A stretch of 64,000 nt of DNA from a phage. The stretch lies in the NCBI GenBank assembly GCA_036253495.1, contig GCA_036253495.1_4125.1. One strand, 5' to 3'. Within the stretch, counting starts at the first letter, position 1, and each line of letters begins with the position of its first letter. The notes beneath the pieces are model-generated. The model saw only the letters and a program-made list of their open reading frames with translations, was not told the origin of the DNA and ran no database searches. The position numbers and the translations under genes are program-made. Shown here piece by piece: positions 3,871 to 21,307 of this stretch.

Positions 3871-3878
3871 AAAAGTAC

Positions 3879-3940: not shown

Positions 3941-3958
3941 GCAATAAGGAATAAAATC

Positions 3959-4180: not shown

Positions 4181-4183
4181 GTA

Positions 4184-4242
4184 TTGACAAAGTATCTTAG
4201 TACTGTATAATAGTTTACATCAAGGGGAGAATAGTTCTCCCC
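4184..4242 (+). promoter_or_regulatory. sigma70-like early promoter + 5' stem-loop
   Basis: TTGACA 4184-4189, TATAAT 4206-4211, hairpin GGGGAGAATAGTTCTCCCC 4224-4242. Confidence 0.7.
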
Positions 4243-4263
4243 GATACTAAAAGGAATAAAATC

Positions 4264-4671
4264 ATGACTACTACTAATCAAGCTCGGTCCATCGCCAACG
4301 ATAAAAATCATGCTGCAATGGTCGCTGGTTACATTGAAGCTATGCAATTCAGTACTGTACACAATGAGAACGGCGAATACCTGGAAGATTATGAATTATC
4401 AGAGCAAGCCCATCAAGCGGCAGTGATTGCATGTTCACGTTTCCTTGCTGTACATGGTGAAGATATGGAAACAGTACAAAAACACCATAATCCTGATTAT
4501 ACTTATAATCATGCAGGTCATGATCTCTTTCTTACTCGCGAAGGTCACGGTACTGGCTTTTGGGATCGTGATATCGGTCACTATGACGATGTATTCACTA
4601 AGTACTGCGAAGAAATCAACGTTTGCGATCCCTATGTAGGCGATGATAATCTAATCTATATGGGCGAATAA
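4264..4671 (+). CDS. hypothetical early protein (His/Asp-rich)
   Basis: track ORF 135 aa; cassette promoter + SD AAAAGGAATAAA. Confidence 0.7.
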   Translation: MTTTNQARSIANDKNHAAMVAGYIEAMQFSTVHNENGEYLEDYELSEQAHQAAVIACSRFLAVHGEDMETVQKHHNPDYTYNHAGHDLFLTREGHGTGFWDRDIGHYDDVFTKYCEEINVCDPYVGDDNLIYMGE

Positions 4672-4677
4672 AAGTAC

Positions 4678-4736
4678 TTGACAAAGTATATCAGTACTGT
4701 ATAATAGTTTACATCAAGGGGAGAATAGTTCTCCCC
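4678..4736 (+). promoter_or_regulatory. sigma70-like early promoter + 5' stem-loop
   Basis: TTGACA 4678-4683, TATAAT 4700-4705, hairpin 4718-4736. Confidence 0.7.
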
Positions 4737-4758
4737 ACCAATAAAAGGAAACAACATT

Positions 4759-5031
4759 ATGTCAAGCTACTCCGCTACTATGATCATTAAAGATATGAAC
4801 GGTAATCCTACTTCTGCTGGTGGATCATTTGGAAACATTAACTTAGATGGTCGGTTATCAATGGAATCAGCCATCAATGCAGCGAAAGAAGTTTTTAAGA
4901 ATGAATGTACTGTAAGCAAGCTAGATTATATGGGCTTCGCTATCGAGAAAACTAAACGTTTTGTGGACTACAAAAATCCACTAATGATTGATACTAACCT
5001 GAAAGCTAACGAAGTGGAATACTTATTATGA
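4759..5031 (+). CDS. hypothetical early protein
   Basis: track ORF 90 aa; SD AAAAGGAAAC. Confidence 0.7.
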   Translation: MSSYSATMIIKDMNGNPTSAGGSFGNINLDGRLSMESAINAAKEVFKNECTVSKLDYMGFAIEKTKRFVDYKNPLMIDTNLKANEVEYLL

Positions 5032-5219
5032 CAGTTGAAGAAGTTAAAAAAGTACTGGCAGTACTACGCTATCATAATCATTGCAAGGTGAAGAATGATC
5101 CTGATTATGTTGATTCATCCCTGGAGGAAGACACCTTAAACGCGATAAGCCATATGCAAACATTAGCAAAGCGTATGACCGAAAAGAATAGGCCGGACTA
5201 TATCGGAAATAAAATTTAA
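5028..5219 (+). CDS. hypothetical protein
   Basis: track ORF 63 aa; ATGA overlap with previous. Confidence 0.6.
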   Translation: MTVEEVKKVLAVLRYHNHCKVKNDPDYVDSSLEEDTLNAISHMQTLAKRMTEKNRPDYIGNKI

Positions 5220-5226
5220 AAAGTAC

Positions 5227-5288
5227 TTGCATTGTAGTTAGATTAAAGTATAATGTTTTATATCGAGAGGGGGAAATGGTTTCCCCTC
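5227..5288 (+). promoter_or_regulatory. sigma70-like early promoter + 5' stem-loop
   Basis: TTGCAT 5227-5232, TATAAT 5249-5254, hairpin GAGGGGGAAATGGTTTCCCCTC. Confidence 0.7.
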
Positions 5289-5306
5289 AAGTCCAGGAGA
5301 TACACC

Positions 5307-5570
5307 ATGAACACTATCGAAATCACTATTAATGCTCACGTATACGACAACGTAGTACTGCAAACTACTATGACCGCTAACGATACCAGTACTTTGCGGA
5401 ATACTGTTATAAGTGCTGTATGTGCCGCTATCGGTGATGTATCCCTGGAAAATGCAGAACACATCAACAACGGTTTCACTATGTGCAAACGTGATAACGC
5501 AAAACATATCATCGTAGAAGGTTACGGCGGTGTAGAATATAACCTTTATATGAAAAAAGTACTTGCATAG
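5307..5570 (+). CDS. hypothetical early protein (87 aa)
   Basis: SD AGGAGA + ATG 5307; track start 5253 is in promoter. Confidence 0.65.
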   Translation: MNTIEITINAHVYDNVVLQTTMTANDTSTLRNTVISAVCAAIGDVSLENAEHINNGFTMCKRDNAKHIIVEGYGGVEYNLYMKKVLA

Positions 5571-5619
5571 TAACTAAAACAAAGTATAATGTTTTGCATA
5601 GGGGGAGATATCCTCCCCC
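5563..5619 (+). promoter_or_regulatory. sigma70-like early promoter + 5' stem-loop
   Basis: TTGCAT 5563-5568, TATAAT 5585-5590, hairpin GGGGGAGATATCCTCCCCC 5601-5619. Confidence 0.7.
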
Positions 5620-5638
5620 ACTAATAAGGAGTACTACG

Positions 5639-5863
5639 ATGGCTAATCATGATGAACTGATTCGGGAAGTAGCTAACCTGGCGGCAGAAAAGAAATCATT
5701 TGATTCTATCTATAACACCGCTCACCGTGATTCAGTACTGGCATGTAATCAGGATCAAAAAGATGAACTGATCGCAACCTATCATGAAGCATGGAAGTAT
5801 TACCGTCAATGGGAGAAAGAAGAAAAAGCATCAACCATAAGAGGATTAAATAATCTAGTATAA
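5639..5863 (+). CDS. hypothetical early protein (74 aa)
   Basis: SD TAAGGAG + ATG 5639; track start 5594 is in hairpin. Confidence 0.65.
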   Translation: MANHDELIREVANLAAEKKSFDSIYNTAHRDSVLACNQDQKDELIATYHEAWKYYRQWEKEEKASTIRGLNNLV

Positions 5864-5915
5864 CAATAAAAGGGGATGATAATATCCCCTTAATAATTTC
5901 TATAATAGGTTAACA

Positions 5916-6182
5916 ATGAAAAAGAAAACAACATATCGCTATAATAAAAATTATCAATCCGTTGTATTAGATCACTCTATGCTCCCGCTCGTTGTCCCTG
6001 CCGTTGGTGTAGTCTATCAATCCATATACTGGTCAAGGAAACAACAAAAGTACTTAAAAGGCCCACTAGCACGTTATGAGGGTAACGGTGTATGGTCCGA
6101 TCCGTTACATCCAATCACTACGCGTTATATTGAATATTTTCCTTATTGTGACTACATTGAAATACATCCTAAATTTAATTGA
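5916..6182 (+). CDS. hypothetical protein, paralog of 6263-6520
   Basis: track ORF 88 aa; shared LP..P..G..Y....W......Y.....Y.GNG.W.DP..PI pattern. Confidence 0.65.
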   Translation: MKKKTTYRYNKNYQSVVLDHSMLPLVVPAVGVVYQSIYWSRKQQKYLKGPLARYEGNGVWSDPLHPITTRYIEYFPYCDYIEIHPKFN

Positions 6183-6187
6183 TAGTA

Positions 6188-6241
6188 TTGACAGTACTAA
6201 CTGATAGTGTATAATGTTTTGCATAGGGGGAATACTCCCCC
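6188..6241 (+). promoter_or_regulatory. sigma70-like early promoter + 5' stem-loop
   Basis: TTGACA 6188-6193, TATAAT 6210-6215, hairpin GGGGGAATACTCCCCC 6226-6241. Confidence 0.7.
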
Positions 6242-6262
6242 AATATTAAAAGGGGAATCATC

Positions 6263-6520
6263 ATGGAACAATTCACACAATATCGGGTAAATCCTCAAGC
6301 TATGGCCTACGTAGAAGACCATAAAACGTTACCAGTACTGCAACCAGTTAAAGGCCGTATCTATCGTGGCCTTGCATGGAATACGGCCCAGGATGGATAT
6401 AAAACCGTTGCCGTGGGGATGTATTGCGGGAATGGTGAATGGTTTGATCCTAACAATCCGATTGCACTTGACAGTACTGAAAAAATGAAATGGGCCGACT
6501 ATATCGAGGATATCTCATAA
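6263..6520 (+). CDS. hypothetical protein, paralog of 5916-6182
   Basis: track ORF 85 aa; cassette promoter. Confidence 0.7.
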   Translation: MEQFTQYRVNPQAMAYVEDHKTLPVLQPVKGRIYRGLAWNTAQDGYKTVAVGMYCGNGEWFDPNNPIALDSTEKMKWADYIEDIS

Positions 6521-6526
6521 AACTAT

Positions 6527-6588
6527 TTGACAGTACTATCATATAGTGTATAATGTTTTACATAGAGCGGGGGAATAGTTCTCCCGCC
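6527..6588 (+). promoter_or_regulatory. sigma70-like early promoter + 5' stem-loop
   Basis: TTGACA 6527-6532, TATAAT 6549-6554, hairpin ~6565-6588. Confidence 0.7.
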
Positions 6589-6609
6589 AATAGTTTGGAG
6601 TAAAACATT

Positions 6610-6810
6610 ATGTCAATCGCTATCGCCCTGGTTGAAGTACTGAAAGAAGCTAAAGCTAACCTGATCGACGTAAAGATCCAGGAACTACAATCCGGCTTAA
6701 TCGGCTGTACTTGTACCGCTGGTGGGGCGACAGATTATCGTGAATTCGAATCACTCGAATCTATGGTTCGGTATCTTACAATGATCGTGGAAGATTGGAA
6801 GATCATCTAA
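6610..6810 (+). CDS. hypothetical early protein
   Basis: track ORF 66 aa; SD TTTGGAG. Confidence 0.65.
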   Translation: MSIAIALVEVLKEAKANLIDVKIQELQSGLIGCTCTAGGATDYREFESLESMVRYLTMIVEDWKII

Positions 6811-6822
6811 CAAAAAAGAATA

Positions 6823-6960
6823 AAAAAAGGGATTGACTCCGGTCAGTCCCTTTGCTATTATATACGCATAGACAAAAACTAGCCCACAGGGTGCATAGGT
6901 GTATCTAAAATATATAGTTAATAACGGTGAGTAACTATCTGCTGGTGGAGTGAAAACTAT
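6823..6960. repeat. conserved intergenic element, copy 3 of 3
   Basis: same module as 441-560; GGGTGCATAGGTGTATCTA; GCTGGTGG at 6941-6948. Confidence 0.75.
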
Positions 6961-6973
6961 TAATAAAAAACTA

Positions 6974-7002
6974 TTGACAAAGTATAGCAGTACTGCAATA
7001 AT
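6974..7002 (+). promoter_or_regulatory. sigma70-like promoter
   Basis: TTGACA 6974-6979, 17-nt spacer, AATAAT 6997-7002 (weaker -10). Confidence 0.5.
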
Positions 7003-7055
7003 GTATCTCGTAGGGCGGCAATGGTGCGACGGTCCACAAAGTTAGGAGATTCAAA

Positions 7056-7388
7056 ATGAGTACTTCAATCGCTATCGTAAACGCTTTCATCCGTACCAAT
7101 GTTTCATCTGTATTCATTGACGGGCTGGATCGGGAAGTAGAATACTCAATCATTATCGCACAAACTGCAAACGGTGCTCGGTATATCCTCAATGATAGTG
7201 AAGCAAATCACTACTACTACACTAAAGCTACTGGCTTTAAACGCATCGATGCGGACGTAGTATACGCTAAGATGAATAAGCTGGTAGACAAGATTAACGC
7301 TAAAGGTACTATCGATTTACAGTACTGGACCGAAACCGATCCAGAATATGGATCACATCGCTACCTGAATCCAGGTATTAAAATGTAA
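7056..7388 (+). CDS. hypothetical protein
   Basis: track ORF 110 aa; SD TTAGGAGA. Confidence 0.65.
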   Translation: MSTSIAIVNAFIRTNVSSVFIDGLDREVEYSIIIAQTANGARYILNDSEANHYYYTKATGFKRIDADVVYAKMNKLVDKINAKGTIDLQYWTETDPEYGSHRYLNPGIKM

Positions 7389-7395
7389 AAAGTAC

Positions 7396-7458
7396 TTGCA
7401 TAGTACTTAGTAAAGTGTATAATGTTTTACATAGAGAGGGGGAAATGGTTCTCCCTCC
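7396..7458 (+). promoter_or_regulatory. sigma70-like early promoter + 5' stem-loop
   Basis: TTGCAT 7396-7401, TATAAT 7418-7423, hairpin GAGGGGGAAATGGTTCTCCCTC. Confidence 0.7.
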
Positions 7459-7477
7459 TAAATTAAGGAGTTTTATC

Positions 7478-7879
7478 ATGACCTTCTCAATCACTTCTTA
7501 CGCTGACGTTTTAGTACTGGCTCGGACTTTTGGTAAAGATGCACTGGAGTACGCTGTAAGTAATGGTACTATCCAACCGGAGCAGTGCCGCATCATTGGA
7601 AACTGCAAACGTTGGGCGGTATCCAATACTATTGCACTGGAAAACTTCAACGATGGCAACAATGAATATTCTGTTGATGTAGTATTCGAAGCCGTTGATC
7701 TCGGCGGTATCTATAACACTAACCTGAATGATGTGCGTATCGTTCGCACGGGGTTCGGTGCTTATGATGTATCTATTCGTGAAGCTATGAACACCGGATA
7801 CATTAGCAAGGACTTACTTGCTCACATCATGCAGCTGTGGACGGAACGTAACGAAGCACGCACTATCTTAGGACTGTAA
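7478..7879 (+). CDS. hypothetical early protein (133 aa)
   Basis: SD TAAGGAG + ATG 7478; track start 7415 is in the -10. Confidence 0.65.
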   Translation: MTFSITSYADVLVLARTFGKDALEYAVSNGTIQPEQCRIIGNCKRWAVSNTIALENFNDGNNEYSVDVVFEAVDLGGIYNTNLNDVRIVRTGFGAYDVSIREAMNTGYISKDLLAHIMQLWTERNEARTILGL

Positions 7880-7903
7880 GCATTACACATCACCAAACAT
7901 CAT

Positions 7904-7923
7904 AGGCCGCTCTCTAGCGGCCT
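7904..7923 (+). other. GC-rich stem-loop without T-tract
   Basis: AGGCCGCTCTCTAGCGGCCT perfect inverted repeat; mRNA-stability or processing site candidate. Confidence 0.4.
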
Positions 7924-7947
7924 TAACTATATCAGGAGTACACACAC

Positions 7948-8157
7948 ATGATCTATACAGTATACAGCGTTCTAGGTACTATTGCAGGCGTACACGATAA
8001 CGTCAATGATGCTATGCGTACAGTACTGCAACAGGTTCCACTAAAGCCTAAGACTATTAAGCAGATGACAGCACGACTAACCAGGGCAAAGGCTGGCGGT
8101 GAAGTCTGGCAGGACTACGCGGATACGCAGATTATCATTGCAGTAAGTAATGATTAA
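7948..8157 (+). CDS. hypothetical protein
   Basis: track ORF 69 aa; SD CAGGAG. Confidence 0.6.
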   Translation: MIYTVYSVLGTIAGVHDNVNDAMRTVLQQVPLKPKTIKQMTARLTRAKAGGEVWQDYADTQIIIAVSND

Positions 8158-8202
8158 TGAATTAAATGATTCAGTACTAAAACTATTAGTCAGAAAATAA
8201 TC

Positions 8203-8231
8203 GGTGCATTTTTAAAATGCATCGTTTTTTA
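8203..8231 (+). terminator. rho-independent terminator
   Basis: GGTGCATT..AATGCATC hairpin then GTTTTTT. Confidence 0.6.
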
Positions 8232-8339
8232 TTTTAACCAGTACACTATAACGTATGAAATAGTTTCGACCTGTTATTATAACTTAGGGCAACTAGGGGC
8301 GGGTAATTGCTTAGCTCGTGTGAAGGGGTTCATAGGGTA

Positions 8340-8369
8340 TTGACTTTTTATATGAATCGTGTATTATAT
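8340..8369 (+). promoter_or_regulatory. sigma70-like promoter of the GTNYQ-family array
   Basis: TTGACT 8340-8345, TATTAT 8362-8367. Confidence 0.5.
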
Positions 8370-8397
8370 GATTGATATTAATTTTAAGGGAGTCCCT

Positions 8398-8595
8398 ATG
8401 CGTATTTTAACACAAGAAGAGCATCACGAAAGACTTATCAATAACATGGCTATGATAATGTATAAGTCTCATAAACGTGGTAATGCCTATAAACGTGAAT
8501 TAGTTATGGAACTATTCTTAGGAACTAACTTACAAAATGAATATGTTAAACTATATGTAAAAGAGTTATGTTTAGAGATAAATGGTAAACTATGA
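8398..8595 (+). CDS. GTNYQ-family small protein
   Basis: SD AAGGGAG + ATG 8398; motif LFLGTNLQ. Confidence 0.7.
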   Translation: MRILTQEEHHERLINNMAMIMYKSHKRGNAYKRELVMELFLGTNLQNEYVKLYVKELCLEINGKL

Positions 8596-8792
8596 AAATG
8601 CGTACATTAACTCAAGATGAATATCATCATATACTACGTAAAAACACGGCAAGAATTTACCAAAGCAATGTGCACTTAGAAAGAGTTGAGTTGTACCTGT
8701 TGATTACGATGGGAACAAACTATCAGGAAGTGTGGATAACTCACTATTTGGAATCTTTGAAAGCTGACATACGAGCTAGGAGAAAACTATGA
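8592..8792 (+). CDS. GTNYQ-family small protein
   Basis: track ORF; TMGTNYQ; ATGA coupling; near-duplicate of 8789-8989. Confidence 0.75.
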   Translation: MKMRTLTQDEYHHILRKNTARIYQSNVHLERVELYLLITMGTNYQEVWITHYLESLKADIRARRKL

Positions 8793-8989
8793 AAATGCGT
8801 ACATTAACCGAAAAAGAATATCAAGCTCTACTACGTAAAAACATGGTAAGGATTTACCAAAGCGATGTGCACTTAGAAAGAGTTGAGTTGTACCTTTTGA
8901 TTACAATGGGAACCAACTATCAGGAAGCATTGATATCGAAATATTTGGAATCTTTGAAAGCTGACATACGAGCGAGGTGCAAACATTGA
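8789..8989 (+). CDS. GTNYQ-family small protein
   Basis: track ORF; TMGTNYQ; near-duplicate of 8592-8792. Confidence 0.75.
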   Translation: MKMRTLTEKEYQALLRKNMVRIYQSDVHLERVELYLLITMGTNYQEALISKYLESLKADIRARCKH

Positions 8990-9195
8990 AAATCATAACA
9001 CAGACACAAGCATTTGGTCGTATATTGAAATACCTTGATGACATGATAGATATACATAGTGACCTCCCTAAAACTGTAATCGACGCCAAAAGAGCAGAAT
9101 ATCGCATGATGGCTGTACTGAACACAAACTTTCAGGAAGAGTATGTCAATGATTGGATTGGATTTTTAATTGAAGATATAAAGAGTAAACTATGA
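8986..9195 (+). CDS. GTNYQ-family small protein
   Basis: TTG 8986 after SD GAGGTG (track uses GTG 8977); motif LNTNFQ. Confidence 0.6.
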   Translation: MKIITQTQAFGRILKYLDDMIDIHSDLPKTVIDAKRAEYRMMAVLNTNFQEEYVNDWIGFLIEDIKSKL

Positions 9196-9404
9196 TTATA
9201 TTAACACCAGAGCAATATAGGAAACGTTACAATTCTAAGCAGATTGAAATCTTGCTGATATATGCAGACAGGGATGATGTATACTTATCAAAAGTTATGG
9301 AAAAAGAATTACTTATGGGTGTCTTCTTAGGAACTGACCACCAGAAATCTTATGTCCAAGAGTATCTAATAGCTCTTGAGAAATACATCAGGAGTAAACT
9401 ATGA
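9192..9404 (+). CDS. GTNYQ-family small protein
   Basis: track ORF; FLGTDHQ; ATGA coupling. Confidence 0.7.
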   Translation: MIILTPEQYRKRYNSKQIEILLIYADRDDVYLSKVMEKELLMGVFLGTDHQKSYVQEYLIALEKYIRSKL

Positions 9405-9625
9405 ACTGCATTAATAACTTTGAATACGAGGCTCGCTCAAGGTGTGCATCTCAAAAAGAGAACCACATTTACTTCACTATGATGTACTTATCTTGGAATG
9501 AAATTGAAGAAATGGTTGCTGAAGTATGGCTGTTTGAATTCATGGGGACGCAGTATCAGAATAGGTTTGTGGGTGAGTATCTTAATGTTCTTATGAAACA
9601 TATAGAAAGAAAGGGAATGAACTAA
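9401..9625 (+). CDS. GTNYQ-family small protein
   Basis: track ORF; FMGTQYQ. Confidence 0.7.
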   Translation: MNCINNFEYEARSRCASQKENHIYFTMMYLSWNEIEEMVAEVWLFEFMGTQYQNRFVGEYLNVLMKHIERKGMN

Positions 9626-9876
9626 TGAAAGTATTATCAAGCACTGAGTATCAATCTGCCCTATTCTCTTTACTAAACACCCTTCGCAAGAACAATGAAC
9701 TTTATCCTTCCCCTGAGAATGATGTAGTTAATGGTGACGTGTTTCTACTTAAATTCGTTGGAACTAATAAACAAGATATCTTCACTGATCGTTATATCAA
9801 TGCACTAAGAAACCTTGTAGCGTATAAAACCCGCCAGGCCAAAAGAGAATGGAAGAGACAATGCGATCCAGAATAA
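9625..9876 (+). CDS. GTNYQ-family small protein
   Basis: track ORF; FVGTNKQ. Confidence 0.7.
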   Translation: MKVLSSTEYQSALFSLLNTLRKNNELYPSPENDVVNGDVFLLKFVGTNKQDIFTDRYINALRNLVAYKTRQAKREWKRQCDPE

Positions 9877-10109
9877 ATCACATCATGTACGTTAAACTAT
9901 TTCAGAAACTAATCCACAAACACTATGATACAGTATCTGATAAACTCACTAATGATATCAGCAGACTTATTCACTGTGAAGCAGAGATGCTTGTACTGAT
10001 GACGGGAGACGATACACAAACAATCTCTAAGGCAATAGAGAACTATCTGGAAGCATATCAACAACATATAAGAACGGAAGTCTGGAGACGAGAGAATGAA
10101 AATCCTTAG
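9861..10109 (+). CDS. GTNYQ-family small protein (divergent)
   Basis: ATG 9861 (track 9849); degenerate motif MTGDDTQ. Confidence 0.55.
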   Translation: MRSRINHIMYVKLFQKLIHKHYDTVSDKLTNDISRLIHCEAEMLVLMTGDDTQTISKAIENYLEAYQQHIRTEVWRRENENP

Positions 10110-10311
10110 TGGGTATGAATATTACAGGCTGTTGCGAACTATACAAGCAAAAGTTTCTAGTATTTCTTTAAACAAATCTATTGCACAAGTGGACAAATGT
10201 GTTATAATAACTGAAATGAAGCTATCTATCTTCATTGGGACAAACTATCAAAGCATCTACACTGACGCATGGTTAGCAAGTCTACGTAACAAGGTGATAT
10301 CCAGAGAATGA
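10096..10311 (+). CDS. GTNYQ-family small protein
   Basis: track ORF; FIGTNYQ. Confidence 0.7.
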   Translation: MKILSGYEYYRLLRTIQAKVSSISLNKSIAQVDKCVIITEMKLSIFIGTNYQSIYTDAWLASLRNKVISRE

Positions 10312-10526
10312 AAAAATTACAAGGTTTTGAATATATTAAGCTTCTGCAAACCTGTGAAATCCAAAGAAGAAAGATTCAAAAGGCTAAAAGAATTACCGCA
10401 GAACGAAAGTTTACACTGATAACTGAAGTCTATGTAGAGGCACTCTTAGGCACAAACTATCAACAAACGTATATAGACCTATGGATTGATGCACTCCAGA
10501 AAGAGGTTAAAAGTAAATGCAAATGA
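10308..10526 (+). CDS. GTNYQ-family small protein
   Basis: track ORF; LLGTNYQ; ATGA coupling. Confidence 0.7.
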   Translation: MKKLQGFEYIKLLQTCEIQRRKIQKAKRITAERKFTLITEVYVEALLGTNYQQTYIDLWIDALQKEVKSKCK

Positions 10527-10741
10527 TTAATTTAAGTAAAGATGAATATTATGTACGTCTTGCAAAAACTTATTCATTACGCAAGGCCATTTATGAAAGT
10601 CACATTATTGAACAATCAAATAAGTGGATTGTAGTAAATGAAATCAAGATGCTTTCAGTCTTAGGAACAAACTATCAAGCGAGTGCTGTACTGAAGGTCA
10701 TTAATGCACTTCAAAATGAGGTCCAAAGTAAATGCAAATGA
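10517..10741 (+). CDS. GTNYQ-family small protein
   Basis: track ORF; VLGTNYQ; starts MQM overlapping ..KCK stop. Confidence 0.7.
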   Translation: MQMINLSKDEYYVRLAKTYSLRKAIYESHIIEQSNKWIVVNEIKMLSVLGTNYQASAVLKVINALQNEVQSKCK

Positions 10742-10995
10742 TCAATTTAAGTCAAGATGAATATAACGAGCGACTTGCAAAAATCTCACCTAAACGTAAT
10801 GCAATCTATCACAGCCAAGAAATTCAACACAGTAAGAAGATGATTATGTTTCGTGAGTTAAAGATGGGTGTCTTCTTAGGAACAAACTATCAAGAGACAG
10901 AAGTAAATCGCGTCATAACCGAGTTACTCATGGAAATCAGAGGTAAGCTGTACTTTCATCAAATGACCCAACCACTGAGGTGTAATGAGAAATGA
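10732..10995 (+). CDS. GTNYQ-family small protein
   Basis: track ORF; FLGTNYQ. Confidence 0.7.
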   Translation: MQMINLSQDEYNERLAKISPKRNAIYHSQEIQHSKKMIMFRELKMGVFLGTNYQETEVNRVITELLMEIRGKLYFHQMTQPLRCNEK

Positions 10996-11228
10996 ATAAA
11001 ATTAATAACATCAACTTAGCAGAAAGATTTGATAGAATTGGGGAAGCTCTGAGAAGATACGATAAAGCATATGGTCATTTAAGCTTTACCATAGAAACGA
11101 GATATGCCCTTGAAGAAGAGTTTAAAATGCATAGTCTCTTAGGCACACAGTATCAAAAACAATATGTTCAAAAATGGATTGAATGTTTAATCCAAACAAT
11201 TCATGTGAGGAACATAAAATGCAAATGA
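10992..11228 (+). CDS. GTNYQ-family small protein
   Basis: track ORF; LLGTQYQ. Confidence 0.7.
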   Translation: MNKINNINLAERFDRIGEALRRYDKAYGHLSFTIETRYALEEEFKMHSLLGTQYQKQYVQKWIECLIQTIHVRNIKCK

Positions 11229-11473
11229 TATACTTAACAGACGATGAAATAAAAGAAAGAATAATTAAATCCAGAAAACATACAAATCAACTGCCAAAAG
11301 ACCCAAATCAAACCCCTGCTGAAAGGAGTGCAGAAGTATTATATCAACAACTCCTGTACTTTCTTGGAACTGATAGACAGGATTATTATGTTCGATCGAT
11401 TCTTAGATATCTTAAAATGACTATTCAGGAAAAGATACATGACCAAATATATAAAAATCTTAACAGTCAATGA
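11219..11473 (+). CDS. GTNYQ-family small protein
   Basis: ATG 11219 (MQMIYL, family-typical; track 11183); FLGTDRQ. Confidence 0.65.
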   Translation: MQMIYLTDDEIKERIIKSRKHTNQLPKDPNQTPAERSAEVLYQQLLYFLGTDRQDYYVRSILRYLKMTIQEKIHDQIYKNLNSQ

Positions 11474-11690
11474 ATATCATAAGATTATCATGAAGACTAA
11501 TATTGAGAATTCTAAAAAATCAAATACCAAGTACATTCTGGAACACACATTTGAAGAACGACAATTAGCTTTAGTTGAAGCAAAACTTCTTGCACTATTA
11601 GGGACTAACTATCAAGACGAGTACGTAAGAAAACTAATATACCTTTTAACTAAACACATCAGGAAAAGAAATGCAGCACTTGACAGATGA
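11439..11690 (+). CDS. GTNYQ-family small protein
   Basis: track ORF; LLGTNYQ. Confidence 0.65.
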   Translation: MTKYIKILTVNEYHKIIMKTNIENSKKSNTKYILEHTFEERQLALVEAKLLALLGTNYQDEYVRKLIYLLTKHIRKRNAALDR

Positions 11691-11880
11691 CGAATACGGT
11701 GTTATCATCCTTGATGTTATCAATAAAGAATACCATAGGAAACAACGATACGCTTGTTATGAAGATAAACAGCTTTCTATAGCTGAACAACAATTAGTTC
11801 ATTTATTAGGAACAAACTATCAAGAACAATGCACTGAACGTTACCTGTATCTACTGTCGAGGAAAACACAAAGATTATGA
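11671..11880 (+). CDS. GTNYQ-family small protein
   Basis: track ORF; LLGTNYQ. Confidence 0.7.
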   Translation: MQHLTDDEYGVIILDVINKEYHRKQRYACYEDKQLSIAEQQLVHLLGTNYQEQCTERYLYLLSRKTQRL

Positions 11881-12092
11881 AAATTTTAAGCGAAGGTGAT
11901 GAAGTAATATTACTTATAGAGAATTCAAGTAAATTCTTAAACATATCACTGTCTGATATAGATGAAGATGACAAAGAAGTACTGAGAGCAGATTTAAGAG
12001 TACTGTTACATCTCGGAACAAACCTACAAGAACAATTTGTTGAGGACTACATCAATGAACTTAAAGAATCAGTACTGAGAAGATGCAAATGA
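11877..12092 (+). CDS. GTNYQ-family small protein
   Basis: track ORF; HLGTNLQ; ATGA coupling. Confidence 0.7.
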   Translation: MKILSEGDEVILLIENSSKFLNISLSDIDEDDKEVLRADLRVLLHLGTNLQEQFVEDYINELKESVLRRCK

Positions 12093-12325
12093 AAATCATT
12101 TCACCTACTGAATACAACCAACTATTAAGTAGTTTAATTCCAAAGTTGCATCGTAGCTGGTCAGCAGAATTATCACAGGATGAAAAAAATATTCTAATAA
12201 GTGAAATCTATGTTCTAGCTACTATAGGAACTAACTATCAAGAACACATCATCGTGGATTATATTAATACACTTAAAAGGGTAATACAATTAAAATGCAC
12301 AGACAGCACATACACAAACCCCTAG
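12083..12325 (+). CDS. GTNYQ-family small protein
   Basis: track ORF; TIGTNYQ. Confidence 0.7.
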   Translation: MQMKIISPTEYNQLLSSLIPKLHRSWSAELSQDEKNILISEIYVLATIGTNYQEHIIVDYINTLKRVIQLKCTDSTYTNP

Positions 12326-12525
12326 GAACAGCAGAATACATTGAACTAATGGCAGCAAACTTCTCATCCTTTCAGAAACTGAGGCAAGAATCAAATAATG
12401 ATTTAGAATATCATATCAAAAGTTCAGATTTAAGATTGTTACTCACTCTAGGAACAGACAGTCAGTACAAATTCGTACAGGAGCATATTAGAGCACTTTT
12501 AAATGGCATCAGGGATAAACTATGA
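12295..12525 (+). CDS. GTNYQ-family small protein
   Basis: track ORF; TLGTDSQ; start uncertain. Confidence 0.6.
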   Translation: MHRQHIHKPLGTAEYIELMAANFSSFQKLRQESNNDLEYHIKSSDLRLLLTLGTDSQYKFVQEHIRALLNGIRDKL

Positions 12526-12737
12526 AGGAAATATCAAATCAAGAGTACTTGGCACTATTCAGAAAAAATAAGAAAGAATTTATTGTACTTGATACAAGAA
12601 CTGATATAGGGGAACTTGAAAAAAATCTTTTGCGTTCAGATATGATAGTACTGATACTCTTAGGAACACAGCATCAAGAAAGAACTGTTAATTCACACAT
12701 AGAAATACTTAAGAAGCTTATACAGGAAAAGTTATGA
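12522..12737 (+). CDS. GTNYQ-family small protein
   Basis: track ORF; LLGTQHQ; ATGA coupling. Confidence 0.7.
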   Translation: MKEISNQEYLALFRKNKKEFIVLDTRTDIGELEKNLLRSDMIVLILLGTQHQERTVNSHIEILKKLIQEKL

Positions 12738-12955
12738 GAATCATAACACAAAAAGATATGTTTAAGTTAGCAAGGGATCATGCATCTGAAATTGATGCTA
12801 TAGTATCAAAAAGTTACAATGACCCTTATACACAAGATGTACACTACAATGAATTATGGGTGTATATACTTTTAGATACAAATTATCAAGAGCAAGCAGT
12901 ACAGAGGTATTTGAGTGCTTTAAGTACTGCTACTGCTAATGGAATAGGTGTTTAA
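12734..12955 (+). CDS. GTNYQ-family small protein
   Basis: track ORF; LLDTNYQ. Confidence 0.7.
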   Translation: MRIITQKDMFKLARDHASEIDAIVSKSYNDPYTQDVHYNELWVYILLDTNYQEQAVQRYLSALSTATANGIGV

Positions 12956-12957
12956 AA

Positions 12958-13299
12958 ATGAAAACTAATATTCAACTTAAGGTTTATAAATCATTTGCAA
13001 GTACATATATCAAATGCAGTCTATGTAAAGATGTAATGGACTACAAAGGTAAGCCATTCACGATTACTTACGATTCTACAAGAGGTTTTTATATATCTTT
13101 TGCTGATTACAAATATAACATGTACGAACACATTGACATTGAAGATTTAAGTACTTTATCTGAAGAAGAATACTTTCAAGAATCATTAGTATGGGATTTA
13201 GAGTTTCCTATGCCATTGGTACATAAGATGATAGTACTAATAAAAGAAACTAAACAGGAGCCTAATAGTGCTTATGAAGAACACATTATTGAGTACTGA
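12958..13299 (+). CDS. FQxS-family protein
   Basis: track ORF; motif SEEEYFQESLVWD. Confidence 0.7.
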   Translation: MKTNIQLKVYKSFASTYIKCSLCKDVMDYKGKPFTITYDSTRGFYISFADYKYNMYEHIDIEDLSTLSEEEYFQESLVWDLEFPMPLVHKMIVLIKETKQEPNSAYEEHIIEY

Positions 13300-13302
13300 A
13301 CC

Positions 13303-13533
13303 ATGAAAAGATTATCATTCGAAGAGTACTGCAAGCTTATTAATACTTTACAACCACAAATAAAACAAATAAATTCTCTTCCTATATCCCAAGAAGAACG
13401 TGCAGTACTGAAAGATGAGTTAATTTTAAAATGCACAGTAGGTACTAACTATCAAGCTGATAGTGTTCGTTATCTAATTTGGGGTTTAATGTGCATAATA
13501 GAGAACAAAGCAGTTGACAGTACTCTAATGTAG
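13303..13533 (+). CDS. GTNYQ-family small protein
   Basis: track ORF; TVGTNYQ. Confidence 0.7.
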   Translation: MKRLSFEEYCKLINTLQPQIKQINSLPISQEERAVLKDELILKCTVGTNYQADSVRYLIWGLMCIIENKAVDSTLM

Positions 13534-13582
13534 TGCTATAGTGTCAGTACTTTTTCGAGCGTTAAAATATAGGGTACAGATT

Positions 13583-13828
13583 ATGTTAAAATTTTTAAAT
13601 TTCCTTATCGTCTTGTGTATTGTTCTTGGGATTGCACCGTTTGTATTAGCGTATCTGGATTCAGATGAAATGCACAAGATGAATTGCACAAAGACAGGAC
13701 AGAGTAGAAAAGAGACGGTTATGATGCCCGTAACGGTTATTGTGAATAACATGCCGATTACAAACATGGTCCCTACCCTAACGACAACGTACCAGTACTC
13801 TTGTGATGACGGAGAGAGGTGGAGATAA
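13583..13828 (+). CDS. hypothetical small membrane protein
   Basis: ATG 13583 within track ORF 13541; N-terminal TM helix FLIVLCIVLGIAPFVLAYL. Confidence 0.45.
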   Translation: MLKFLNFLIVLCIVLGIAPFVLAYLDSDEMHKMNCTKTGQSRKETVMMPVTVIVNNMPITNMVPTLTTTYQYSCDDGERWR

Positions 13829-13835
13829 TGCGATA

Positions 13836-14162
13836 ATGCGTAAGATCAATTGTATAAAAAGAGCGAATACATGTTTCATTGCGTTGACCAATGTACCGGG
13901 TGGGTCTGGTGTTAAGATATTTGAGTACAATAAAGTTGATAATTGTTTCTATTGGGTAGAAGGTATCAAATCATATGAAAATACGATAGCAGTACCGAAT
14001 CTAGTTGATATCTCTGAAGAAGAAGAGTTTCAGTACATGTTAGTACACGATGATTCTTTTGGGTTGACATACAAAGAGATGAAGGAAGTACAAAGGCAGA
14101 TGATATCATGTATGAATATTTCTAAGCATTTCCTTCAAAATATTCATCCAATTTACGTATAA
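13836..14162 (+). CDS. FQxS-family protein
   Basis: SD GGAGAGAGGTGGAGA + ATG 13836; motif SEEEEFQYMLVHD. Confidence 0.65.
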   Translation: MRKINCIKRANTCFIALTNVPGGSGVKIFEYNKVDNCFYWVEGIKSYENTIAVPNLVDISEEEEFQYMLVHDDSFGLTYKEMKEVQRQMISCMNISKHFLQNIHPIYV

Positions 14163-14171
14163 GAGATTAAT

Positions 14172-14507
14172 ATGAAATTCAACATTCATAGAATTAATTC
14201 CGGTTGTATATTTGCTTATACGCATGAGAATTACAAGAAGTACATGAATCATGAAGTACATTATGTTTTTGAGGACGGTAAAGAATATTTTGCTTATTTG
14301 AGTCCCAGGAGTTTAGGTAAGTACGAGTTGCTTCAGGATCTTTCTCTTATGCAGGAAGATGAATTATTTCAGTACAGTCTAATTCATGACCCTTATATGT
14401 TTGATATAGATATTATGTGCAGTTTACAGAAGAGGATGAAAGAAGTTTGGGATTCGATTAAAAGAGGTGATTGTATAGAATATGATAGTATACAAGAAGA
14501 TGCCTAA
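14172..14507 (+). CDS. FQxS-family protein
   Basis: track ORF; motif QEDELFQYSLIHD. Confidence 0.7.
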   Translation: MKFNIHRINSGCIFAYTHENYKKYMNHEVHYVFEDGKEYFAYLSPRSLGKYELLQDLSLMQEDELFQYSLIHDPYMFDIDIMCSLQKRMKEVWDSIKRGDCIEYDSIQEDA

Positions 14508-14700
14508 CGGATATGAATTGAAGTACAGACATTTTATTCGAAATGTAGATTCAGATCCTTTTAATGTTAAAATGGCAGAGTTCGATTTATTATTTTATCT
14601 AGGAACGAGAGCACAGCCACAATTCGTTGATGCATACATAAGGGCTTTACGAACAGAGATAGTATGCACACCAAAGGAGTCTAAATGTACAAAAATGTAA
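14482..14700 (+). CDS. GTNYQ-family small protein
   Basis: track ORF; FYLGTRAQ; start uncertain (alt ATG 14500). Confidence 0.6.
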   Translation: MIVYKKMPNGYELKYRHFIRNVDSDPFNVKMAEFDLLFYLGTRAQPQFVDAYIRALRTEIVCTPKESKCTKM

Positions 14701-14942
14701 ACCATCATTTGTACGCATCAAAGTACAGGGATTTTTGTTTACAAGGGGGCGATGAAGATTTTGCTTTGCGATTATCGGAATTTAATATGTTATTTTATCT
14801 TGGTACATCAGTACAAGAAGAAATGGTACAGAAATTTATCAAGCACCTTGAACGAAAAATTCATACGCAAATTTTGGTTGTTAAGTTACAGAATGAGATA
14901 AATGAATACAATGCAGAATCTAACAATAGTACAGGATCTTAG
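14685..14942 (+). CDS. GTNYQ-family small protein
   Basis: track ORF; FYLGTSVQ. Confidence 0.65.
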   Translation: MYKNVNHHLYASKYRDFCLQGGDEDFALRLSEFNMLFYLGTSVQEEMVQKFIKHLERKIHTQILVVKLQNEINEYNAESNNSTGS

Positions 14943-15303
14943 ACCAGTAATAATGATGTTAAATGCAAGACGAGATTTATGGCACGAAATGCATAACAAG
15001 AAGGATTCATTTGCACAAATCAATTTAGTCTTTCAGGAGTTAATCCAGAGTGCATTGGATGTTATTGAACCAAAATACAAAGATGGTATATTCTGTGTAA
15101 AGAATGCAGTTCGTCCTCATGCAATTCCAAGGAAAATTAAGTTAGCTAGATTAACATTTGACGAGAGGGATTTCTTCAGTTATAATCCCAGTACAGCTTT
15201 ATATTTTATTCCTGATTCAGACAAATATCATCCTATCCATTACGGATGGATTATGTCTTATATAGTAAATGAAACGGAATACCCTATTAAATGGGAAAGA
15301 TGA
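14902..15303 (+). CDS. hypothetical protein
   Basis: track ORF 133 aa. Confidence 0.55.
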   Translation: MNTMQNLTIVQDLRPVIMMLNARRDLWHEMHNKKDSFAQINLVFQELIQSALDVIEPKYKDGIFCVKNAVRPHAIPRKIKLARLTFDERDFFSYNPSTALYFIPDSDKYHPIHYGWIMSYIVNETEYPIKWER

Positions 15304-15479
15304 TGATAGATGTTAAGACATTAAATGCATTACAGGATTCATTATTAGATAGTATTAAGCTGTATTACAATATGCATTTGAGGGGTGGTATCAATGATTA
15401 CAATTATTATTTGAGTGTAATTATATTTGAGCATCTTTCAGTACAGGATAGAATTTTACACAAGTACAAACATTATTGA
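15291..15479 (+). CDS. hypothetical small protein
   Basis: track ORF 62 aa. Confidence 0.45.
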   Translation: MGKMMIDVKTLNALQDSLLDSIKLYYNMHLRGGINDYNYYLSVIIFEHLSVQDRILHKYKHY

Positions 15480-15490
15480 GGAAACAAAAT

Positions 15491-15850
15491 ATGTTCAATA
15501 AAATCATGTTCATTTTAACATTTGTGTTTTTATCATTCACAAACACCGCTCATGCAGTACATGCAGAACAGGCATCATCGGATGTACCGTTATATGAAAC
15601 ATACAAATTTGATTGCAGATTGCAGAATAATGAAATAATCAATATCTTTTTACACAATACAGAAGTACCTTATTTGCAGATTGAAGCAACGAAGTACATG
15701 TATTATGGTACGAATTCGGTACAGGAATTTTTATTCAAACACACCAATCAGGATGTAATTATATCATTGCAGTACGTTGATAGTTCATTGTCTTTAATGC
15801 ATTTCAAGAATGCAGAGGGATTAGTTACAGTGCTCAAATGCTATAGGTAA
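15491..15850 (+). CDS. hypothetical secreted protein
   Basis: SD GAGGAAA + ATG 15491; signal-peptide-like MFNKIMFILTFVFLSFTNTAHA. Confidence 0.6.
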   Translation: MFNKIMFILTFVFLSFTNTAHAVHAEQASSDVPLYETYKFDCRLQNNEIINIFLHNTEVPYLQIEATKYMYYGTNSVQEFLFKHTNQDVIISLQYVDSSLSLMHFKNAEGLVTVLKCYR

Positions 15851-15856
15851 TAATAT

Positions 15857-16372
15857 ATGAATGAAATTGAATTATTAACGCACAAGATTAGTACAATAAT
15901 GCTTATGCTCAAAAATAATCATCCTATACATAAGTACATTGATATAGATGAATTACGCATAGAAGATAGGCATGGTAAATTATCGTTTATGTTTCACAAT
16001 GCAAATAATGCAGGGAATGTTAACGTTTGTATTGCAGCATTTACCCAAGCCAATCCAGTACAAACATCTCCTGTTGTATACGAAAATAAAGAAGGGTATT
16101 TGTGGGTAAACACAAACGATTATTTCTTTTATGATTTGAAACAAGATGATGAAGTAGAAGAACGAATTGATTTAATTGATATTAGTACAGATTGTAGTGC
16201 TGAATTATTTCAGAAATCGTTATTATATAGTCCTCGTCAAATGCATTATCTAAAGTTATTCAGTTCATTGTACGCGAATCCTTTAATTAAGGGTTTTAAA
16301 TTTTATATAAAAGTTCCTGACATTCAAGCAGTTTATGATATTTTGATGCAAGGATATAGTTATGAAGTATAG
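15857..16372 (+). CDS. FQxS-family protein
   Basis: track ORF; motif SAELFQKSLLYS. Confidence 0.7.
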   Translation: MNEIELLTHKISTIMLMLKNNHPIHKYIDIDELRIEDRHGKLSFMFHNANNAGNVNVCIAAFTQANPVQTSPVVYENKEGYLWVNTNDYFFYDLKQDDEVEERIDLIDISTDCSAELFQKSLLYSPRQMHYLKLFSSLYANPLIKGFKFYIKVPDIQAVYDILMQGYSYEV

Positions 16373-16670
16373 AATGCTCTATACAAAAGATATGATTTAT
16401 GTTGAATTAGAAGGCGATGAAGACGGTTGGAATTTGATTTATTCATGTAGTTCAGGTTGGTACATGGCACATTTAAATGATAACGAAGTCACAGATTATT
16501 TTGTAGATTTCAATACATTATCCGACGAAGAATTGTTTCAACAGCAATTAGTGATTGACACAGGTGGATATGATGTGTTATTATTAAAAAAGATACAGAA
16601 AGCTGTTATGAATTTTAATGCCCAGGTATCCGAATGGGAAAGGAAATATTATGACCTCGAAGTACAATAA
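16362..16670 (+). CDS. FQxS-family protein
   Basis: track ORF; motif SDEELFQQQLVID. Confidence 0.7.
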   Translation: MKYRMLYTKDMIYVELEGDEDGWNLIYSCSSGWYMAHLNDNEVTDYFVDFNTLSDEELFQQQLVIDTGGYDVLLLKKIQKAVMNFNAQVSEWERKYYDLEVQ

Positions 16671-17019
16671 TACATTTGATATCAATAAGTTAACAGAATG
16701 GTTTTATAATATTGAAATTGAAGCTATTCCGTATCATAAGTACGAACAAAGTGATTTGCGTAGTATAGATATTCGTGAGTTGTATGCATATTATCAGAGT
16801 GCATTAGAGATGCATAAGATATTTTTGAGTACAGAATACATGACACGTTGTAAGGATGCGTTTGATGAATTCAAGAAGAATGATAATTTAGTACAGAAAT
16901 ATGTAATAGCAAAGTACATGTACCTTCAGGGAATTACAAGTACAGTGGAATTCAATACAGTTCTTGCTTTAGTTGAGATTATTTTATTATGCAAAAATGT
17001 AAAGTGGAATTTAGTTTAG
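16651..17019 (+). CDS. hypothetical protein
   Basis: SD GGAAAGGAAA + ATG 16651 (track 16618). Confidence 0.55.
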   Translation: MTSKYNNTFDINKLTEWFYNIEIEAIPYHKYEQSDLRSIDIRELYAYYQSALEMHKIFLSTEYMTRCKDAFDEFKKNDNLVQKYVIAKYMYLQGITSTVEFNTVLALVEIILLCKNVKWNLV

Positions 17020-17486
17020 AGAGTGCTGTACAGTACGTTAAGTACATTGAAGGTGTATACAATATAATGAAAGCATATGAAGGAAAAGGATATGCTTCAA
17101 TAAATCACAAATATGATTATATTAACAATCAGTTAGAAGAATCAAATTCAGGTAAAGTGCTTTTTAGTTTTTTATATTTTGCTCCTGACAATGTATATCC
17201 TGATGAAAATGATCTTCGTCTGGAAAGAGATGACCTTTGGTATATGTATCCAGGACGTGATAAGCCAATGGATGATGCTTTGTTGGAAATCAAATACAGT
17301 ACAGAACCTTTGACACCGGAGTTGTGGTTCCAGTACAGTACAATACATGAAGAAATTGATATCTTTTTCTACGCAATATATAAGATGCTTTATGAGAATG
17401 GTGTGCTTAAGAATCATGTATATTTTTATTTCCAGCAAATGAAAAATGTATATGAGTCCTTTTACCCAACCGAGCCTGTATCGTAA
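16989..17486 (+). CDS. FQxS-family protein
   Basis: track ORF; motif PELWFQYSTIHE. Confidence 0.7.
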   Translation: MQKCKVEFSLESAVQYVKYIEGVYNIMKAYEGKGYASINHKYDYINNQLEESNSGKVLFSFLYFAPDNVYPDENDLRLERDDLWYMYPGRDKPMDDALLEIKYSTEPLTPELWFQYSTIHEEIDIFFYAIYKMLYENGVLKNHVYFYFQQMKNVYESFYPTEPVS

Positions 17487-17512
17487 GATATGGGCTTTTT
17501 TACGTTTTGGTA

Positions 17513-17541
17513 TTGACACAGTACAGAATCGGTGCTAACAT
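17513..17541 (+). promoter_or_regulatory. sigma70-like promoter
   Basis: TTGACA 17513-17518, 17-nt spacer, TAACAT 17536-17541. Confidence 0.45.
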
Positions 17542-17568
17542 ACCTGAACCATTTTTAAGGAGAACCCA

Positions 17569-18111
17569 ATGCAAACATCGCAAAAATCGCAAAAATCGCA
17601 AGTACAGAAAGCAATGACATTCAATGAAATTGGTGCATTTAAAGATAAGATTATTGATTGTATTGAATACGCGATTTGTAGTAATATCAAAAGTATAGAG
17701 GTATTTAACAAGTCAAATCGCTCTTACCATATGATGTACATTGCAAACAATAATGGTATCATTCCATTTGTTTCGGATAGTACAATATGGTTCGCTTGCG
17801 ATGTGAAAAAATACACAATAGGTTCATATGTCTTCGGTAAACATGGTGATCTAATTATTCCTGAGCATTGTATGCAAGAAGAAGAATATTTTCAAAAGCA
17901 ATGTGTACATGAACCATTAGAGATGGTTGCTTTATATATGATACCTTATATCTCTAAATGTGTTCATGAGAATAAAGCTCCGTGGAATCATGAATTTGTA
18001 TCGTTGAAGTTATTGTATAATGTTTTAGTACAATATTATGATTACAGACACGAGGGTACAATCAGCGATGTATGGGATTTCGAAAATTTAAGGGTAAAAA
18101 CATATGAATAA
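17569..18111 (+). CDS. FQxS-family protein
   Basis: track ORF; SD AAGGAGAA; motif EEEYFQKQCVHE. Confidence 0.7.
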   Translation: MQTSQKSQKSQVQKAMTFNEIGAFKDKIIDCIEYAICSNIKSIEVFNKSNRSYHMMYIANNNGIIPFVSDSTIWFACDVKKYTIGSYVFGKHGDLIIPEHCMQEEEYFQKQCVHEPLEMVALYMIPYISKCVHENKAPWNHEFVSLKLLYNVLVQYYDYRHEGTISDVWDFENLRVKTYE

Positions 18112-21306: not shown

Positions 21307-21307
21307 A

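Follow-up and report, generated by a model that had tools for sequence, protein, structure and literature searches.

Multigene families near genome ends are known in large eukaryotic DNA viruses; the MGF110, MGF360 and MGF505 families of African swine fever virus (ASFV) and the terminal families of poxviruses act in host range and immune evasion. In phages, T7 gene 0.3/Ocr, the pre-early genes in the T5 terminal repeat and the SPO1 host-takeover module are leading-end early genes. Small diversified helical binders on a common scaffold occur in polymorphic-toxin immunity arrays and among the four-helix colicin immunity proteins. Single-domain expansions are also known in other jumbo phages: Bacillus phage G has a zinc-ribbon family of ~35 copies, a lineage-specific expansion (Iyer et al. 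2021, PMC7824862). Here we analyzed a 64,000-nucleotide (nt) stretch of phage DNA (GenBank assembly GCA_036253495.1, contig GCA_036253495.1_4125.1; hereafter the window), which from position 8398 carries a tandem array of small paralogs with a GTNYQ-type motif. The array is a genuine lineage-specific multigene family and fits the kind described above.

The same family is present in the PHROGs database as phrog_4148, there only a sequence cluster labelled "unknown function" (PHROGs v4), with no function, fold, array or copy-number description. The array resembles the ASFV and poxvirus families in having tandem paralogs by a terminal repeat, variable content, non-structural products and, probably, early expression. 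It differs from them in being bacterial-viral, in protein size (~70 vs 100-500 amino acids [aa]), in the lack of homology, and in its polycistronic layout with overlapping genes. With the phage G family it shares dozens of copies of one small domain in one jumbo phage genome, there proposed as specific factors; however, the array proteins are helical, lack a metal-binding Cys/His pattern and belong to another phage group, and the family is not mentioned in the survey of Iyer et al. 2021. The leading-end genes of T7, T5 and SPO1 are likewise small genes without homologs, located by a terminal repeat, preceded by strong host-type promoters and, as is probable for the array, made first; however, they are unrelated single genes rather than one family of 21-31 paralogs, and no sequence or fold match to them was found.

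A profile hidden Markov model (HMM) of the 19 obvious copies was run on all 350 open reading frames (ORFs) of at least 40 aa in the six frames of the window. It detected 25 members at E <= 2e-8 and ORF 9849-10109 at E = 0.01; no other ORF scored below 0.2. An improved HMM, consisting of the window copies plus database representatives, raised 9849-10109 to E = 8e-12, giving 26 family members of 64-87 aa. Twenty-one of these are contiguous on the + strand (8398-12955), and the other five start at 13303, 14482, 14685, 23745 and 23963. This bears out an earlier reading made from the letters alone (the sequence-only reading), which had listed at least 21 consecutive small paralogs with further members at those positions. 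The gene at 12958-13299, which that reading had included in a range of 8398-13533, is a non-member belonging to a different small family, phrog_13866. The phrog_4148 profile (74 positions) was matched over its full length by the eight copies tested (E = 1.7e-19, 2.8e-27, 1.4e-18, 9.4e-22, 4.3e-12, 3.9e-16, 1.1e-5 and 1.5e-11), and likewise by copies from Klebsiella phage RaK2 and by C-terminally extended members. All 26 reading frames are intact and keep the core and capping residues described below.

All copies lie on the + strand; E-values in this paragraph are from the HMM unless stated. Copy 1 (8398-8595, 65 aa, E = 2.4e-16) has a Shine-Dalgarno (SD) sequence, GGGAG, upstream. Copy 2 (8592-8792, 66 aa, E = 1.7e-19) is a recent duplicate of copy 3 (8789-8989, 66 aa, E = 1.4e-19), which is without a reciprocal ortholog in Escherichia phage A4. 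Copy 4 (8977-9195, 72 aa, E = 3e-20) has a GTG start and an NTNFQ variant of the motif. It is followed by copy 5 (9192-9404, 70 aa, E = 6.8e-20), copy 6 (9401-9625, 74 aa, E = 2.2e-21; phrog_4148 E = 9e-22) and copy 7 (9625-9876, 83 aa, E = 7.7e-17). Copy 8 (9849-10109, 82-86 aa, improved HMM E = 7.9e-12) is degenerate, with TGDDTQT replacing LGTNYQ. Next are copy 9 (10096-10311, 71 aa, E = 2.6e-21), copy 10 (10308-10526, 72 aa, E = 4.2e-22), which was the copy modelled, copy 11 (10517-10741, 74 aa, E = 1.9e-22), copy 12 (10732-10995, 87 aa, E = 1.9e-24; phrog_4148 E = 2.8e-27) and copy 13 (10992-11228, 78 aa, E = 1.6e-19). Copy 14 (11219-11473, E = 3.9e-19) has 84 aa counted from an MQM start, its ORF opening at 11183. 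Copies 15 (11439-11690, 83 aa, E = 4.3e-18) and 16 (11671-11880, 69 aa, E = 5.7e-19) precede copy 17 (11877-12092, 71 aa, E = 4.2e-22), the most acidic member with an isoelectric point (pI) of 4.5. After copy 18 (12083-12325, 80 aa, E = 4.7e-25), copy 19 (12295-12525, 76 aa, E = 2.4e-18) and copy 20 (12522-12737, 71 aa, E = 1.6e-20), the uninterrupted run ends with copy 21 (12734-12955, 73 aa, E = 3.5e-19), which has a DTNYQ variant. Copy 22 (13303-13533, 76 aa, E = 4.4e-20) lies downstream of the non-member 12958-13299. Copies 23 (14482-14700, 72 aa, E = 4.4e-15) and 24 (14685-14942, 85 aa, E = 1.1e-13; phrog_4148 E = 1e-5) have divergent N-termini, and copies 25 (23745-23972, 75 aa, E = 5.1e-20) and 26 (23963-24169, 68 aa, E = 9.5e-15) form an outlying pair.

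A megablast search of 50,697 phage records with window 8300-13600 matched 36 records, all from ~350-kb jumbo phages of E. coli or Salmonella in the PBECO4/121Q group (genus Asteriusvirus). The nearest relative was phage A4 (96.5% identity), and the remaining records were 80-90% identical. Judged by these matches, the window is from an E. coli jumbo phage of Asteriusvirus type. Nearly every ORF in it is on the + strand, and its G+C content is 29-41%. The sequence-only reading had named an assembly artefact as what would refute it. This possibility was ruled out: the array is collinear in the 36 independently sequenced records, and the sole DNA-level repeat that Tandem Repeats Finder detected in it was at 8587-8993 (period 197, 2.1 copies, 87% match), corresponding to copies 2 and 3.

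The family has a narrow distribution. A word-indexed search returned 82 proteins, each encoded on a contig of the type seen in this phage group. When 1.84 billion cluster representatives were searched exhaustively with HMMER, only 98 passed E <= 1e-3, nearly all of 52-96 aa. tblastn with concatenated divergent representatives and with RaK2 copies gave matches only in Escherichia/Salmonella Asteriusvirus and Klebsiella RaK2-like phages. Two candidates among the database proteins were set aside. P0125 (2178 aa, nine matched stretches) is a spurious eukaryote-like repeat protein. P0159 (269 aa) arises where, in EC.P1 and UB, one family copy reads through into the neighboring 200-aa gene; only this C-terminal part has homologs in RaK2-like phages, and neither part has a Pfam domain. 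HMM counts in syntenic stretches of ~30 kb, which followed the suggestion to check copy number in related phages, gave 26 copies in the window, 25 in A4, 25 in 121Q, 31 in PBECO4, 31 in WPEC5 and 21 in JNE01. RaK2 had 13 copies, scattered in twos and threes over 18 kb; two of these (15170-15535 and 18814-19161) share a C-terminal extension of ~50 aa in which no domain was recognizable. Shortened copies of 48-53 aa are present in 121Q, PBECO4 and RaK2. The family accounts for 4-5% of the genes in an Asteriusvirus genome. Tandem paralogs, variable content and narrow distribution are thus all evident at the sequence level, as in other viral lineage-specific multigene families.

The proteins are already public as "hypothetical protein" entries and as a PHROG without assigned function. 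The RaK2 paper noted that paralogues make up ~10% of the RaK2 gene products; the array itself is not described in the Asteriusvirus and RaK2 genome papers or the jumbo-phage reviews consulted. In PBECO4 (NC_027364), the matching stretch 12004-20103 has 19 RefSeq features as compared with 31 family ORFs by HMM, and about a dozen copies are unannotated.

The shared GTNYQ-type motif reported by the sequence-only reading was confirmed. In the alignment of the 26 window sequences, T of GTNYQ is invariant, Q and one downstream L are nearly so, and mean column identity is 28%. Among 172 copies from seven genomes, T was conserved in 98%, Q in 98%, G in 91% and the downstream L in 94%. AlphaFold2 (AF2) modelling of copy 10, with the paralogs as alignment, gave a confident four-helix fold (predicted local distance difference test [pLDDT] 97.3; predicted template modelling score [pTM] 0.82), with predicted helices at residues 6-15, 17-25, 31-45 and 52-71 and a beta-bridge from residue 2 to T49. 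The most divergent member, copy 8, was predicted with pLDDT 87.5 to have an unchanged helix order and no beta-bridge. The conserved columns of the 172 copies are of two kinds: hydrophobic core positions spaced i, i+3/4, i+7, and T/S-x-x-E/Q motifs located precisely where helix 1 (T5..E8) and helix 4 (T49..Q52) begin. T/S-x-x-E/Q patterns at helix N-termini are helix "capping boxes". Because the T-x-x-Q box sits at the N-terminus of helix 4, the GTNYQ hallmark is probably structural rather than catalytic. The exposed positions, the helix-2 segment and net charge vary between copies; net charge ranges from -7 to +8 and pI from 4.5 to 9.7 (median 8.5), with 16 of the 26 copies basic. The family thus combines a conserved scaffold with diversified surfaces.

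The proteins could instead be a set of nucleic-acid-binding regulators, such as transcription or anti-sigma factors, with the LGTNYQ turn and the long helix forming a helix-turn-helix (HTH)-like unit. The LGTNYQ pattern is superficially similar to an HTH turn, the basic pI of most copies is in keeping with this idea, and single members had weak Pfam matches to winged-helix families (DUF2087, E = 0.018; Bac_RepA_C, E = 0.088). The predicted fold argues against it: T-x-x-Q would lie at a helix N-terminus, and no tri-helical HTH fold with a recognition helix was seen in the models. We consider a regulator set unlikely.

The array begins downstream of a terminator-like hairpin (8202-8224, + strand) with a 10-bp stem and a T-run, which closes the upstream gene 7948-8157 and whose stem is conserved in phage fEgEco12. 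A sigma-70-type promoter-like site (TTGACT-16-TATTAT; 8340-8367, + strand) precedes copy 1. In the fEgEco12 alignment, the -35 and -10 hexamers and the ribosome-binding site (RBS) are perfectly or near-perfectly conserved and the remaining spacer has diverged; promoter and RBS are likewise kept, with a diverged spacer, in WPEC5, 121Q and JNE01. Stop and start codons overlap through the array as stated by the sequence-only reading, at all 20 junctions of the 21-gene core: nine are ATGA, four ATGCAAATGA and one TAATG, and six are overlaps of 13-35 nt. Purine-rich SD-like runs precede most starts by 6-12 nt and fall within the 3' end of the upstream gene. Conservation of the C-terminal SKL-stop and SKCK-stop is partly due to the overlapping start of the next gene. 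A terminator scan found no terminator-like site on the + strand between 8224 and 15233. Internal promoter-like sites at 11680-11708 and 13514-13542 are probably chance occurrences in coding sequence; they are kept in the near-identical A4 only. The proposed single coupled transcript from a promoter at 8340-8369 is therefore supported anatomically, and by sequence criteria the 21 core genes look like a translationally coupled polycistronic operon.

In A4, a 942-bp insertion (A4 12039-12979) takes the place of window 8339-8393, the promoter segment of the array. The insertion encodes a 272-aa Cys-rich ORF, A4_316, which matches phrog_681 "endonuclease" (E = 3e-10), and brings its own promoter-like site (TTGACA-17-TATGAT) ahead of copy 1 of the array. 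It resembles a free-standing element of the homing-endonuclease type.

The position of the array relative to the genome end was deduced from fEgEco12, whose direct terminal repeat of 20,993 bp has been experimentally confirmed and whose record begins at the physical termini (PMC13070987). In fEgEco12, the last upstream gene, g056, extends to 20,841, and the array opens with g057 at 21,091. When aligned from fEgEco12, the end of the left direct terminal repeat would lie at 8297-8310 in the window, at a conserved GGGCGGGTAA, with the boundary at ~8309. By this homology, the array would come first among the transcription units in the unique region, starting ~90 bp inside the left repeat boundary. 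The conserved GGGCGGGTAA itself (8297-8306) aligns with the end of the fEgEco12 repeat (20,993), and may be related to terminus recognition.

Window 1-8400, the counterpart of the fEgEco12 terminal repeat, is organized in a "one gene, one promoter" layout, in contrast to the packed array. It has 48 promoter-like sites vs 29.3 +/- 4.5 in shuffled sequences, and 13 terminator-like sites vs 5.4 +/- 2.5 expected. Eight sites are perfect 12/12 sigma-70 promoters (TTGACA-16/17-TATAAT) in intergenic gaps of the + strand at 695, 1034, 1302, 1732, 4184, 4678, 6188 and 6527, each of which precedes one small gene. These perfect promoters and the overall excess are in favor, though no proof, of an early transcription of this arm by the RNA polymerase of the host. 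A 28-nt perfect hairpin, AAAGGGATTGACTCC(G/A)GTCAGTCCCTTT followed by GCTATTATAT, occurs at three sites (444-481, 3748-3785 and 6826-6863). Its stem holds TTGACT, with TATTAT downstream, the hexamers of the array promoter at 8340-8367; the hairpin could serve as terminator and promoter in one, or as a promoter element under regulation.

Mass spectrometry (MS) of phAPEC6 virions identified 62 proteins, none of them from gp348-gp548, where the array maps, and none weighing 7.5-10.5 kDa. Because they are absent from this virion proteome, the array products are evidently non-structural and not packaged in the virion. This finding argues against the possibility that the copies are subunits of one hetero-oligomer, for example an early intracellular scaffold, or adaptors or chaperones for fibres, with stoichiometry fixed through translational coupling. 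The common scaffold and the single operon with every junction overlapping would suit such an assembly, and phages of this group have unusually complex fibre sets (PMC7247149). On the other hand, copy number varies between genomes (21, 25, 25, 26, 31 and 31; 13 dispersed copies in RaK2), the JNE01 set has been replaced as a whole (see below), the array is on an early-type arm far from the structural genes, and the AF2 monomer is predicted to be well packed by itself. A hetero-oligomer is therefore quite improbable.

The profile and structure searches proposed by the sequence-only reading established the common phrog_4148 family and the predicted four-helix fold, and gave no sequence or structural relative outside the family. 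Pfam scans of 10 proteins, and then of all 26 members singly, found no family matched by more than one member, and PADLOC gave isolated noise matches only. The best match of the family profile to Protein Data Bank (PDB) sequences was at E = 1.6. Foldseek against PDB gave a best E of 2.4, with T4 Vs.4/Acb2 at only E = 4.6 (probability 0.18), and Foldseek against the viral predicted structures of BFVD matched only family members, from 121Q, UB, slurp01 and PBECO4.

The array is similar to polymorphic-toxin immunity arrays in that tandem, diversified, small helical proteins turn over rapidly, here in an early position. As a special case of the binder-panel idea discussed below, each copy could neutralize a host abortive-infection or toxin-antitoxin toxin or an effector of a competing phage. 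However, the array is a phage operon of early type, no toxin domain was found in the selected neighbors scanned (a non-systematic search), Foldseek gave no fold match to colicin or contact-dependent inhibition immunity proteins or to known antitoxins, and the lone CcdA match, in one member, was at E = 0.065. An immunity or antitoxin-like panel thus has a low probability.

Paralogs in the window have a mean identity of 28.6% (median 28.2%). Just two adjacent pairs are of recent origin (79% and 53% aa identity); otherwise, adjacent copies are only slightly closer than distant ones. The copy 2/3 pair (8592-8989; 79% aa and 87% DNA identity) corresponds to one copy in A4 (13178-13378), indicating gain or loss. 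In A4, 121Q, PBECO4 and WPEC5, the reciprocal best hits follow the same order as in the window; each of these genomes also has 5-9 copies without a window ortholog. Family orthologs have a median identity of 66-68%, vs 82-88% for non-family neighbors at the same loci. The ratio of nonsynonymous to synonymous substitution rates (dN/dS), measured for each of three genomes on ~20 independent ortholog pairs, was 0.37-0.44 for the family and 0.23-0.28 for the neighbors (Mann-Whitney p = 0.003-0.02). These dN/dS values mark the copies as real coding genes held by purifying selection, though under a constraint that is relaxed or moves faster. In JNE01, the flanks remain 87% identical whereas the best family matches fall to 38%; the set has thus effectively been exchanged. 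Forty-five columns show a difference in >80% of the pairs between paralogs and in only 35% of those between orthologs, and several helix-3 positions are almost entirely paralog-specific, yet 82-92% conserved among orthologs. This site pattern reads as the signature of sub-functionalized paralogs, not of redundant dosage copies.

The faster evolution of the family relative to its neighbors, the truncated copies in 121Q, PBECO4 and RaK2, and the paralog-rich character of the arm (among 160 + strand ORFs with 50 aa or more, 50 are in families at BLASTP 1e-4) would be expected if the array were neutral filler, a functionless by-product of duplication and recombination in a permissive, non-essential arm. 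The dN/dS values, the 26 of 26 intact frames, the maintained start and RBS architecture and the retention of the family across two phage genera make this very unlikely. The dosage-amplified regulator offered by the sequence-only reading, a "genomic accordion" in which many copies yield more of one protein, has in its favor the head-to-tail layout and the recent pair 8592/8789 lacking in A4, and is largely refuted, to the point of being hardly credible, by the divergence data: no set of near-identical recent copies was seen, copies are kept as separate orthologs with paralog-specific residues and widely differing charge, and the array is ancient, being common to Klebsiella RaK2-like phages.

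The other suggestion of the sequence-only reading, a diversified binder set, is consistent with the conserved scaffold, variable surface, pI range, paralog-specific residues and fast turnover. The preferred reading is one scaffold with many surfaces, in which small binding proteins would be expressed together as a panel. As the first unit after the left repeat, with a sigma-70-type host promoter, the array would most likely be transcribed early, by the RNA polymerase of the host; its products are not virion proteins. In the course of takeover, each binder would dock onto a macromolecule of its own, from the host (or a competitor). The same arm encodes a T4 Rnl1-type RNA ligase (54700-55845; PF09511 + PF20819) and a T4 Pnk-type polynucleotide kinase/phosphatase (56919-57851; PF25109 + AAA_33). 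Rnl1 and Pnk form the classical pair for tRNA repair, a counter to anticodon nucleases. Because of the leading-end position, the turnover between strains and these counter-defence genes on the same arm, the targets would most plausibly be variable host proteins, such as components of anti-phage defence.

Several points weigh against the binder panel. The acidic residue in helix 3 (column 39, 93% E/D) and the C-terminal basic residue (column 69, 78% K/R) might form a shared functional site, implying a common rather than a diversified target. Family dN/dS is <1 and positive selection was not demonstrated; the faster divergence could result from weak constraint rather than from an arms race. Gene overlap is common genome-wide, so that coupling is not peculiar to the array, and the terminal-repeat position is carried over from another phage. 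Known anti-defence or host-takeover proteins gave no sequence or fold match in the general Pfam, PADLOC, PDB and BFVD searches.

We hold the descriptive part with high confidence: an ancient, turning-over family with a compact, predicted helical scaffold and diversified surfaces, encoded in an apparently coupled operon beside the terminal repeat and absent from virions. The full statement, that the array would be an early non-virion panel of diversified small binders directed against host proteins, is tentative, with a chance somewhat below even. The strongest version, in which the array would be a repertoire of 21-31 co-expressed four-helix variants, each neutralizing a different host immune or housekeeping protein, on a new scaffold and reshuffled between strains so as to follow the diversity of hosts, and hence the first large diversified anti-defence multigene family in phage, is possible but doubtful.

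Other paralog families are present in the window. A second family of small proteins (102-143 aa; phrog_13866/15629; motif EEE[FY]FQxSLxxD) is interspersed among the final GTNYQ copies; its members are at 12958-13299, 13803-14162, 14172-14507, 16362-16670, 20098-20454, 25426-26177 and 28104-28535. More families were found at 18795-31211, 49232-50580 and 5916-6520: at least nine members of 147-210 aa (phrog_28680/9317/12674/22855), five members of 73-115 aa (phrog_32291) and one pair. At 32387-33799, a 470-aa ORF contains the signalling domain of methyl-accepting chemotaxis proteins (PF00015, E = 7e-37), a surprising feature for a phage.

The array is notable for its size (21-31 copies), orphan fold and position. 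Function aside, it is a clean natural example of phage gene birth, divergence and turnover, and its annotation in public records is incomplete. Should each copy inhibit or bind a host protein of its own, the array would constitute a ready library of 20-30 small, stable, single-domain proteins and offer direct access to host range and evasion of defence in phages that have been proposed for therapy against E. coli, Salmonella and Klebsiella. If the repertoire interpretation is true, the array would be the prokaryotic-virus counterpart of the terminal multigene families of ASFV and poxviruses.

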